Notes: generated from the sequence alone by a model not told the origin. 64,000 bases of DNA from a virus (IMGVR_UViG_3300027804_000038:1-64000), one strand, 5' to 3'; counted from the stretch's first letter, positions 7,682-8,756 are shown. Made by a program: numbers and translations.

Positions 7682-8062
7682 ATGATTAATCAGGTAATTG
7701 ACAAATACACTAAAAACTTTTTAACTTATCACCATAAGGATTGGTATTGGGTTATTAATCCTGTTACCAATGAATGGGTTGTTAGTGTGGCTAAGACAGG
7801 ATACATATTTTATAACAATGACTTTTGGTCTACCTTTATGATGGTTTGTCCTTTAGGTAATTTATATGATAATATTAGGAATTGGGTTGTTTATAAATTG
7901 GATGTTCCTTTAAGTGAACATTGTTATCCTGATTATATAAATGGAGATTATGATTGGAGGGATGAATTTGATGAATCAAAGATTATTGAGGTTATTAACG
8001 ATGGGGAGTTGATTACTTCCCATAAACATGACCCCATATCTATAATTGAGGGTCATATGTAA
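7682..8062 (+). CDS. Hypothetical protein
   Basis: Follows TATCTTTG at 7668-7675. Confidence 0.75.
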   Translation: MINQVIDKYTKNFLTYHHKDWYWVINPVTNEWVVSVAKTGYIFYNNDFWSTFMMVCPLGNLYDNIRNWVVYKLDVPLSEHCYPDYINGDYDWRDEFDESKIIEVINDGELITSHKHDPISIIEGHM

Positions 8063-8108
8063 AAAAAAATTTTTGGAAAAATTTCAGAAATTTGATTATC
8101 TTTGTAAT

Positions 8109-8696
8109 ATGGAAATTTCAAATAAACTAAAGAAAGTAATATTTAAAAAACTATATAAGGATTTATCTCATGTTGATATAATTCCATATAATGATTCCAT
8201 CTGGTTTATTGATAAGGGAAACTCGTATTGGTACTTTGAATTTGAGAATGATAGTAAGCAACTATGGTGGAGATATGATTTCTTTACTGATTACTTCAAT
8301 TTATTTTCAATGGAAGAAAAAACATTCGTTCCGATTTTATCTGAATGGGTGGAAAATATATTAAATCATAAGGTAAATGAAATTGATAGACATTTCTTTT
8401 TTAGAGGACACATTGTGGAAGAGATGTTAAATTGTAATGTTGAAACAACTTCTTCCAGCTCAACTCCATTTTTTCGGGTGGAAGAGATATTAAATTGTAA
8501 GGTGGAAACAACAACGTCTTCTCAAACATTCTTACTTCAGCGGGTGGAAGAGGTATTAAATTATAAGGCGGAAACAACTGATAGTGGTCCTGTCCCGCCA
8601 AAATTTATGATTGAACATATTTTAAATAATGGAGGTAATAATATAGAATATGTTGTTAGTTCAGATTTGGTTAATCAGGTATTGGGAAATAAATAA
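8109..8696 (+). CDS. Distant member of the small paralog family with five in-frame 21-22-aa repeat units
   Basis: KVIFKK...LFSMEE...SEWVENILNHKV then VEEMLNCNVETT, VEEILNCKVETT, VEEVLNYKAETT, IEHILNNGG; TATCTTTG at 8097-8104. Confidence 0.85.
   Translation: MEISNKLKKVIFKKLYKDLSHVDIIPYNDSIWFIDKGNSYWYFEFENDSKQLWWRYDFFTDYFNLFSMEEKTFVPILSEWVENILNHKVNEIDRHFFFRGHIVEEMLNCNVETTSSSSTPFFRVEEILNCKVETTTSSQTFLLQRVEEVLNYKAETTDSGPVPPKFMIEHILNNGGNNIEYVVSSDLVNQVLGNK
8349..8645 (+). repeat. In-frame repeat/spacer array (36-nt repeats; 30, 27, 30, 30-nt spacers)
   Basis: Repeats at 8349-84, 8415-50, 8478-8513, 8544-79 and degenerate 8610-45; adjacent middle repeats 32/36 identical. Confidence 0.7.
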
Positions 8697-8718
8697 AAAA
8701 TTTTTCCCTTCGGGTTGC

Positions 8719-8756
8719 CAATCCCCCTACCCCCTTTTTTGTTTTTAGATATTTAT
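8719..8756 (+). repeat. Intergenic element AATCCCCC(TA)CCCC-TTTT...TATTTAT; further copies at about 9143-9179 and 9625-9665
   Basis: Precedes three consecutive genes (8764, 9194, 9679). Confidence 0.75.

Follow-up and report, generated by a model that had tools for sequence, protein, structure and literature searches.

The window analysed here (IMGVR_UViG_3300027804_000038:1-64000) is a stretch of 64,000 nucleotides, namely the first 64 kb of a 293,850-bp virus record of IMG/VR which is rated complete by CheckV. The source virus is a freshwater jumbo phage of about 294 kb with a G+C content of about 30%. It encodes a T4-type large terminase (the closest named terminase, that of Flavobacterium phage immuto, shows 26% identity), and tail sheath, PolB and RNR genes are also found in the record; the stretch is present in freshwater metagenomes of 13 studies. 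The subject of this work is one gene of this phage, at 8109-8696, in which an N-terminal domain is followed by an array of the CRISPR type, where 36-nt repeat units alternate with variable inserts in a frame that stays open to the stop codon. The window array is one example of a widespread phenomenon, the CRISPR-type array embedded in a phage gene.

In the AlphaFold model of residues 1-92, for which the predicted local distance difference test score (pLDDT) is 88, the protein forms a helix, four strands and two further helices, the last of which extends into repeat unit 1 and has its end encoded there. In the full-length model residues 89-195 have a pLDDT below 50 and no fold is predicted for the tail. 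The N-domain fold found no match in PDB or in the AFDB clusters, and no Pfam or PHROGs family was found for the 195-aa protein. The name “CRISPR/Cas system CSM-associated protein Csm2 small subunit”, given by JGI to the homologues P0111 and P0114, is without Pfam support and was rejected.

The repeat finder reported four copies, 71-92% identical and spaced by 66/63/66, at 8346-8383, 8412-8449, 8475-8512 and 8541-8578, and there is a fifth, degenerate copy at 8610. The five units noticed in the first-pass annotation, the stop-free segments of 30/27/30/30 nt between them and their peptides were all confirmed, and a sixth, truncated terminal unit (VNQVLGNK, 8670-8693) was added to them. According to the family logo, the unit begins at the DNA level one base before the codon-phased unit; units 2-4 end in ACAAC. 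In comparison with the 99%-identical contig L074 the window is without two units, owing to a clean 132-nt indel with breakpoints inside units, and there is also a 15-nt indel in the tail. The window copy is an old, decaying array: unit 1 has no ACAAC end, the units are 71-92% alike and two of them are deleted with respect to the sister strain. The features are collected in Table 1.

Table 1. Positions of the array gene, its parts and the sister-family array in the window
Feature	Position	Strand	Description	Basis
Sister-family array (array A)	957..1257	-	unit GTTGAG...ACACC, codon register 0; inserts of 31/30/30/30 nt; not kept in frame	
TAtcTTTG motif	8097..8104	+	4 nt before ATG	read from sequence
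Gene	8109..8696	+	195 aa; N-terminal domain, then repeat-spacer array in frame	open reading frame (ORF) open throughout
N-terminal domain	8109..8347	+	residues 1-80; helix, four strands, two helices	AlphaFold model
Unit 1	8348..8383	+	degenerate; encodes VENILNHKVNEI; 3' end GAAAT, not ACAAC	DNA register from family logo
Insert 1	8384..8413	+	30 nt; DRHFFFRGHI; without match elsewhere in the phage	
Unit 2	8414..8449	+	VEEMLNCNVETT	repeat finder
Insert 2	8450..8476	+	27 nt; SSSSTPFFR	
Unit 3	8477..8512	+	VEEILNCKVETT; breakpoint of the 132-nt, two-unit difference from the 99%-identical strain	
Insert 3	8513..8542	+	30 nt; TSSQTFLLQR	
Unit 4	8543..8578	+	VEEVLNYKAETT	repeat finder
Insert 4	8579..8608	+	30 nt; DSGPVPPKFM; 27-mer without exact match in 185,579 species genomes	
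Unit 5	8609..8644	+	degenerate; IEHILNNGGNNI	
Last variable segment	8645..8669	+	EYVVSSDL; copy of the sister strain longer by 15 nt	
Truncated terminal unit	8670..8696	+	VNQVLGNK and stop codon	aligns with terminal VEEVLNxK-stop of homologues

The borders of the unit do not follow the codons. In 130 distinct units the first position of the conserved block is base 3 of the codon ahead of Val1 (G in 96%) and its last is base 2 of the final Thr codon, whose remaining base is random; the length of the block is 36 nt. Third bases are locked within it even when no similarity filter is applied (Val1 GTG 94%, Glu3 GAG 91%, Lys8 AAG 98%, Thr11 ACA 98%), and Thr12 ACN is free, with T/A/C/G at 34/27/24/15%. 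For comparison, the commonest third base at conserved residues of the N-domain accounts for only 35-88%, and AAG at 98% and GTG at 94% are reached despite the G+C content of the phage. Because the unit is offset from the codons by one base at its borders and its synonymous sites are locked, constraint at the protein level cannot give this pattern; the unit is a DNA-level entity and the nucleotides of the repeat are under selection. The locking of the repeat sequence across distant phages argues for a useful array, or a useful capacity to extend it, and against a scar.

A set of 46 related viral loci, many of them on contigs of 85-326 kb, was obtained with an N-domain alignment query and holds 201 inserts, 135 of which are distinct (123 of 30 nt and twelve of 21-42 nt). 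All 135 distinct inserts are multiples of three, and a stop interrupts the reading frame in only one of them, whereas frame 1 has stops in 41, frame 2 in 70 and the reverse strand in 47-54. In the control, consisting of real Flavobacterium Cas13b arrays, 9 of the 32 spacers measure 29 or 31 nt and stops occur in 12-18 of the 32 in every frame; the difference is significant for length (Fisher p = 1e-7) and for stops (1e-22). Frameshifted homologues are rare: in P0024 the protein closes with WKRY, as the unit reads in the +1 frame, and L021 contains a single stop. Since broken variants arise and yet are almost absent, they must be removed, and on this comparison of sequences the frame through the array is evidently held open by selection for translation of the tail. 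The first-pass proposal that variable peptides are displayed between constant helices has thus stood in part, as selection for a translated tail is strong, whereas display finds no structural support in a tail with pLDDT below 50.

Apart from frame and length the inserts have little in common. Pairwise identity of the 123 thirty-base inserts shows a random mode at 8-9/30 and a small mode of identity by descent at 25-29, with no pair at 19-24, and the four inserts of the window are no more alike than shuffles (P of at least 0.19 for every pair). An older duplication followed by divergence, entered in the first-pass annotation as a caveat, is therefore not needed, and the weak similarity of two spacers ending in CGG was not upheld, because the last G belongs to the repeat and no pair exceeds shuffles. 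One old insert (FEVDAAQKRK / FEINAAQKRT) is common to arrays of different phages. The G+C content of the inserts is 0.40 (confidence interval 0.385-0.416) compared with 0.32 for stop-filtered fragments of the phage, and amounts to 0.46/0.39/0.35 by codon position; relative to third-position composition, E, G and D are over-represented in the peptides and L, I and F under-represented. Both the gradient and this bias in residues could stem from selection on the peptides, as soluble linkers, but just as well from an enrichment of in-frame fragments of genes by the stop filter. Between variants of one insert there are 9 synonymous and 13 non-synonymous changes where 22% synonymous are expected, which corresponds to a ratio of non-synonymous to synonymous rates (dN/dS) of about 0.4; for the units it is about 0.35.

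A protein search restricted to the N-domain gave 707 metagenomic homologues of 107-342 aa. Their lengths advance in steps of 22 aa (about 109, 131, 153, 175, 197, 219 and up to 286), which is also the period in 388 of 448 intervals, so that the number of units indeed varies freely, from 1 to 9 across the family. Among 411 parsed inserts of 7-12 aa in the 120 proteins listed, 298 peptides are distinct. The 12-aa unit is conserved across homologues and the insert columns of their alignment are unalignable; the spacer peptides therefore do not behave as parts of an ordinary degenerate repeat, in which they would align. A repeat-pattern search also returned two orthologues from IMG/VR; their units agree at 33-36 of 36 nt, while their inserts are unrelated.

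Within groups of related phages the distal inserts are common and stand in the same order, additions adjoin the gene body and losses are internal. L062, for example, carries one extra insert ahead of an array otherwise shared within its lineage, and extra inserts are mostly gene-proximal. The common distal inserts and the additions near the gene body, together with the truncated terminal unit, correspond to the polar growth and decayed distal repeat of type VI-B arrays. In the homologue P0040 (220 aa) a unit and its insert form a true tandem duplicate (KRLHLVTRKR twice), thus ordinary duplication also occurs but is rare. Many related phages (L023:1100-1450, L030, L062, L063, L065, L071) possess two genes of the 8109-8696 type at distances from a few hundred bases up to a few kb, and either gene carries an array of its own.

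In the phage itself the family has eight members: the gene at 8109-8696 and seven others, which are of the MKYLITESQ...WVENTLQMKV type. Profile-profile comparison of the two branches (hhalign) gave a probability of 95% and an E value of 3e-8, with WVEEVLNHKV aligned on WVENTLQMKV, which bears out the earlier view that the array occupies the site equivalent to WVENTL; the same homologous position is used in two distant branches. It was also rightly noticed that the nucleotide repeat differs from that of the array at 979-1257, since the repeats of the two branches share 17/36 positions in codon register. The register of the 36-nt unit is 0 in the WVENTL branch, where it starts at the Val codon, and -1 in the 8109-8696 branch, where it starts one base earlier. 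The frame of array A is broken by its 31-nt insert, and the array of the 8109-8696 family is always in frame. L001 is a relative with other inserts.

Some further features of the neighbourhood can be mentioned. The -7 promoter consensus of Bacteroidota is TAnnTTTG. The motif TAtcTTTG ahead of the gene fits this consensus and may be its promoter; the motif recurs in front of the adjacent gene at 7682, and a sigma-70 promoter scan gave nothing relevant. On the 3' side of the stop codon, at 8697-8745 (+), lies a C-rich and then T-rich element (AATCCCCC-ACCCC-TTTTTT) which is kept in a distant orthologue (L003:3830-3850) and in which a terminator scan found no canonical hairpin. The Rfam search returned nothing between 800 and 9000 of the window. 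ARAGORN detected tRNA-Met, tRNA-Arg(tct) and a transfer-messenger RNA (tmRNA) gene in the phage (window 45509-45664 (+) and 49741-50133 (-)); such a tmRNA would be of consequence for array transcripts, should they be cut and thereby lose their stop codon. A similar N-terminal motif (M-K-K-I-V/I-R-L-T-E-S/K-D-L...I-V/I-K-R-V-I) opens many unrelated ORFs of the window, small ones as well as large (6577, 7038, 9194, 10008 and 10556 (+), 2844-3200 (-)), and looks like a shared leader or targeting peptide.

Type VI-B arrays, associated with Cas13b, have a 36-nt direct repeat with complementary ends, 5'-GUUG ... CAAC-3', and a conserved hairpin whose loop is rich in U; their spacers are unique and about 30 nt long, and Cas13b processes the transcript to CRISPR RNAs of 66 nt (Smargon et al., 10.1101/092577). 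In F. columnare they are transcribed from the leader and filled in trans by the Cas1 of a type II-C system, which draws on phage as well as host DNA (Hoikkala et al. 2021, PMC8092290). When 185,579 species genomes were scanned by pattern, arrays turned up in F. columnare, in F. covae and in Flavobacterium sp. J27, with 36-nt repeats ending in GGTATCTACAAC and periods of 65-67; the J27 array adjoins Cas13b (NF038190, 351 bits). The match to Cas13b that adjoins the array of F. covae AL-02-36 covers only a 336-aa piece and scores 146 bits, under the 150-bit cut-off (L060:2378-3388 (+)), and its cas13b may be broken. Real Flavobacterium VI-B arrays (L059:1700-3000 (-), L060:5340-5500 (+), L058) also contain split “long” repeats with periods of 182-184 nt, which match the long-repeat CRISPR RNAs described by Smargon et al. 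(10.1101/092577).

The phage array is akin to these in many respects. The family consensus agrees with Flavobacterium Cas13b repeats at 24/36 positions, where shuffles reach a mean of 9.5 and a maximum of 20 and 12 of the positions are fixed by the search pattern; for the best window unit and for the array-A unit the value is 22/36. Family consensus and a real Flavobacterium repeat both hold AAGGTATCTACAAC, and the 14 nt at the 3' end of the unit are identical to a Flavobacterium repeat. Common to both kinds of array are the 36-nt unit, inserts of 30 nt (123/135), a 66-nt period and the ACAAC end, and likewise the orientation, with transcription from the variable end and the repeat in the GUUG...CAAC sense. 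Inserts are unique, growth is polar, distal units are decayed and internal units are lost. Flavobacterium VI-B arrays have no adjoining adaptation genes and rely on the Cas1 of another system. Searches of the complete 294-kb phage for Cas1, Cas2, Cas13b (NF038190) and reverse transcriptase (RVT_1) found none of them. The differences are that the phage genome has no cas13b, that the phage unit begins with GGUG and not GUUG, so that the consensus ends GGUG...CAAC keep 3/4 of the VI-B pairs, and that the phage array lies within a protein-coding gene, in frame and free of stops. Given repeats of both branches that resemble the 36-nt VI-B repeat of Flavobacterium (22/36, 24/36) and a unit defined in DNA, a writer of the CRISPR-adaptation type is indicated rather than the purely gene-coupled mechanism favoured in the first-pass annotation.

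Taken together, the last 350 bases of 8109-8696 are a CRISPR-type array with VI-B geometry that is predicted to be transcribed and translated as a protein tail, and that was probably written by host Cas1-Cas2 and passed through an open-frame filter. Writing by the host complex in trans, which we infer, would take place during infection, in the way that Flavobacterium VI-B arrays rely on the II-C Cas1. The complex would target the repeat-like end of the gene, copy the 36-nt unit and add one 30-nt piece of foreign DNA. Units would be lost via recombination between repeats, and only those phages would persist in which the new insert keeps the frame open. Flavobacterium-like bacteria are candidate hosts, and cultured Flavobacterium jumbo phages now exist (10.64898/2026.04.22.720137).

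Several observations weigh against host-written adaptation. The conserved VI-B hairpin is absent: the folding energy of the phage units is 0 to -3.1 kcal/mol (z about 0), in agreement with the earlier remark that no clear hairpin is seen, compared with -10.9 and -9.8 kcal/mol (z -2.5 and -3.0) for real repeats. A pattern made of the 5' ten bases of the unit and the AAGGT and ACAAC blocks had no match in the 185,579 species genomes, and the sequence upstream of the first unit is unlike the F. columnare leader. Registers one base apart in sister families are not explained by simple descent from one captured repeat; the shift would agree with a 36-nt ruler for which the anchoring junctions differ slightly. 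Finally, no protospacer was found for any insert tested in any of the collections, where the only matches were to arrays themselves. The searches with 135 DNA and 296 peptide inserts against the phage gave no source, two apparent matches being rejected, since one was an identical old insert that recurs in a paralogous array and the other a run of poly-A. For window insert 4 and for inserts 1 and 2 of array A, exact 26-28-mers gave no protospacer in the 185,579 species genomes, one G+C-rich young insert had five matches in JGI metagenome contigs, all of them arrays, and four inserts compared with IMG/VR met only arrays. Searches of the arrays against 401 Flavobacterium, 401 Flavobacteriales and 401 Bacteroidia genomes (about 1,200 sampled) returned few matches, in AT-rich flanks and none in inserts, and those against five related jumbo-phage records and GenBank phages returned no protospacer. 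It should be remembered that most natural spacers are also without a match, for which reason the absence of protospacers does not decide the matter.

The most conventional alternative is an ordinary protein tandem repeat, in which a 22-residue unit was duplicated, the 12-residue helix was kept by selection and the 10-residue linker drifted. It would account for the open ORF with a period that is a multiple of 3, for a first unit lying within a confidently predicted helix, for the tandem unit and insert of P0040 and for the fair divergence of the window units (71-92%). It does not account for borders one base out of codon phase with locked synonymous sites, nor for near-identical units (34-36/36 nt) that flank inserts of random similarity in relatives; moreover, related arrays differ by whole units and not by graded divergence, and the inserts have a G+C of 0.40 against 0.32 for stop-filtered phage DNA. 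This explanation is largely refuted and may be regarded as very improbable. Selection on the nucleotides of the repeat would itself be expected if the array acted as RNA, as a phage mini-array or decoy: the tail of the messenger RNA would be bound or processed by host Cas13b and yield guides against rival phages or host transcripts, or serve as a Cas13b sponge in the manner of an RNA anti-CRISPR, and the open frame would only protect the transcript, for instance from Rho or RNases. The orientation is right for this (from leader to array, with GUUG...CAAC in the sense found in VI-B loci), the 3' 14 nt are those of a Flavobacterium repeat, and solitary repeats and mini-arrays are known in phages (PMC10651486; 10.1101/2024.10.29.618823). 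Such a role is nonetheless unlikely, as the hairpin is missing (0 to -3 against -10 to -11 kcal/mol), the inserts match no related phage or other sequence searched, and stop avoidance specific to one frame, together with the bias to polar residues, points to protein.

A writer encoded by the phage and coupled to the gene, perhaps the N-domain protein, could add 66-nt units without host Cas1-Cas2, and the likeness to VI-B would then be convergent or ancestral. This would agree with a site tied to one family in two branches with different repeats and codon registers, with a repeat present in no bacterial genome searched and with the many copies of the family per phage (8 here); the failure to find protospacers would leave room for non-templated or unusual sources. 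In the families searched, however, the phage has no integrase-like, Cas1-like or reverse-transcriptase gene, the N-domain is without a recognisable catalytic fold, and the 36+30 geometry, exact duplication of the unit and polar growth are known products of Cas1-Cas2, which makes a writer of this kind quite improbable. A separate question is the purpose of the inserts. Phages may employ host CRISPR adaptation, or their own writer, to generate protein diversity cassette by cassette: every acquisition would place a random 10-residue peptide between constant helices beside a conserved domain, and the peptides would then be selected, for example, to bind or evade variable host defence proteins; this idea is put forward tentatively and is rather doubtful. 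If true, it would represent a new route to protein diversity, distinct from diversity-generating retroelements (DGRs) and from recombination of pre-existing cassettes.

CRISPR arrays are the non-coding immune memory of cells. Here their architecture and population dynamics are found inside a coding gene of phages, across hundreds of freshwater phages, and a literature search found no published description of a translated CRISPR-type array in a phage gene. If host Cas1-Cas2 writes the units, phage genomes would be heritable off-target substrates of adaptation whose target site is kept on purpose, and if the peptides matter, a natural random-peptide cassette system would be at hand. The observations bear on adaptation in trans, on VI-B arrays without their own cas1-cas2 and on the exploitation or subversion of CRISPR by phages. 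They also carry a warning, because pipelines which drop ORFs overlapping CRISPR-like repeats hide real genes.

Mini-CRISPR arrays borne by viruses are reportedly the subject of earlier work by Faure et al. and by Medvedeva et al. 2019. Solitary repeats, mini-arrays and RNA anti-CRISPRs (Racrs) of phages are known (Camara-Wilpert et al. 2023, PMC10651486; 10.1101/2024.10.29.618823). The present array shares with them a CRISPR-repeat-like sequence in a virus that has no cas genes and relies on host machinery. Racrs, which are short non-coding RNAs, imitate the repeat of the host closely, and the spacers of mini-arrays target related viruses, whereas the phage array has up to 9 units, is predicted to be translated, is only 61-67% like known repeats and carries inserts that match no virus searched. 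It is not a close non-coding mimic, the best identity to real repeats being 24/36 and the sequence being coding and frame-selected. Off-target (“neo-CRISPR”) integration of spacers is said to have been described by Nivala, Shipman and Church 2018 as a rare event in E. coli overexpressing Cas1-Cas2. Here too a spacer would be integrated and the repeat duplicated at a site which merely resembles a leader-repeat junction, but the site of the phage array is conserved at synonymous positions across hundreds of phages and the products are inherited and, by prediction, translated. Hypervariable repeat proteins (Altae-Tran et al. 2020, PMC10392669) and DGRs offer another parallel, in that constant modules alternate with hypervariable segments and close strains differ. 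The survey of Altae-Tran et al. discarded ORFs lying in CRISPR arrays as artefacts (PMC10392669), so that a case such as the present one could have been dropped, had its arrays been called CRISPRs with at least 10 repeats. In contrast to targets of DGRs, which depend on a reverse transcriptase and a template repeat and change by substitutions at adenines, the phage array belongs to a virus with neither template repeat nor RVT_1 match and varies by the insertion of whole, unrelated 30-nt cassettes.
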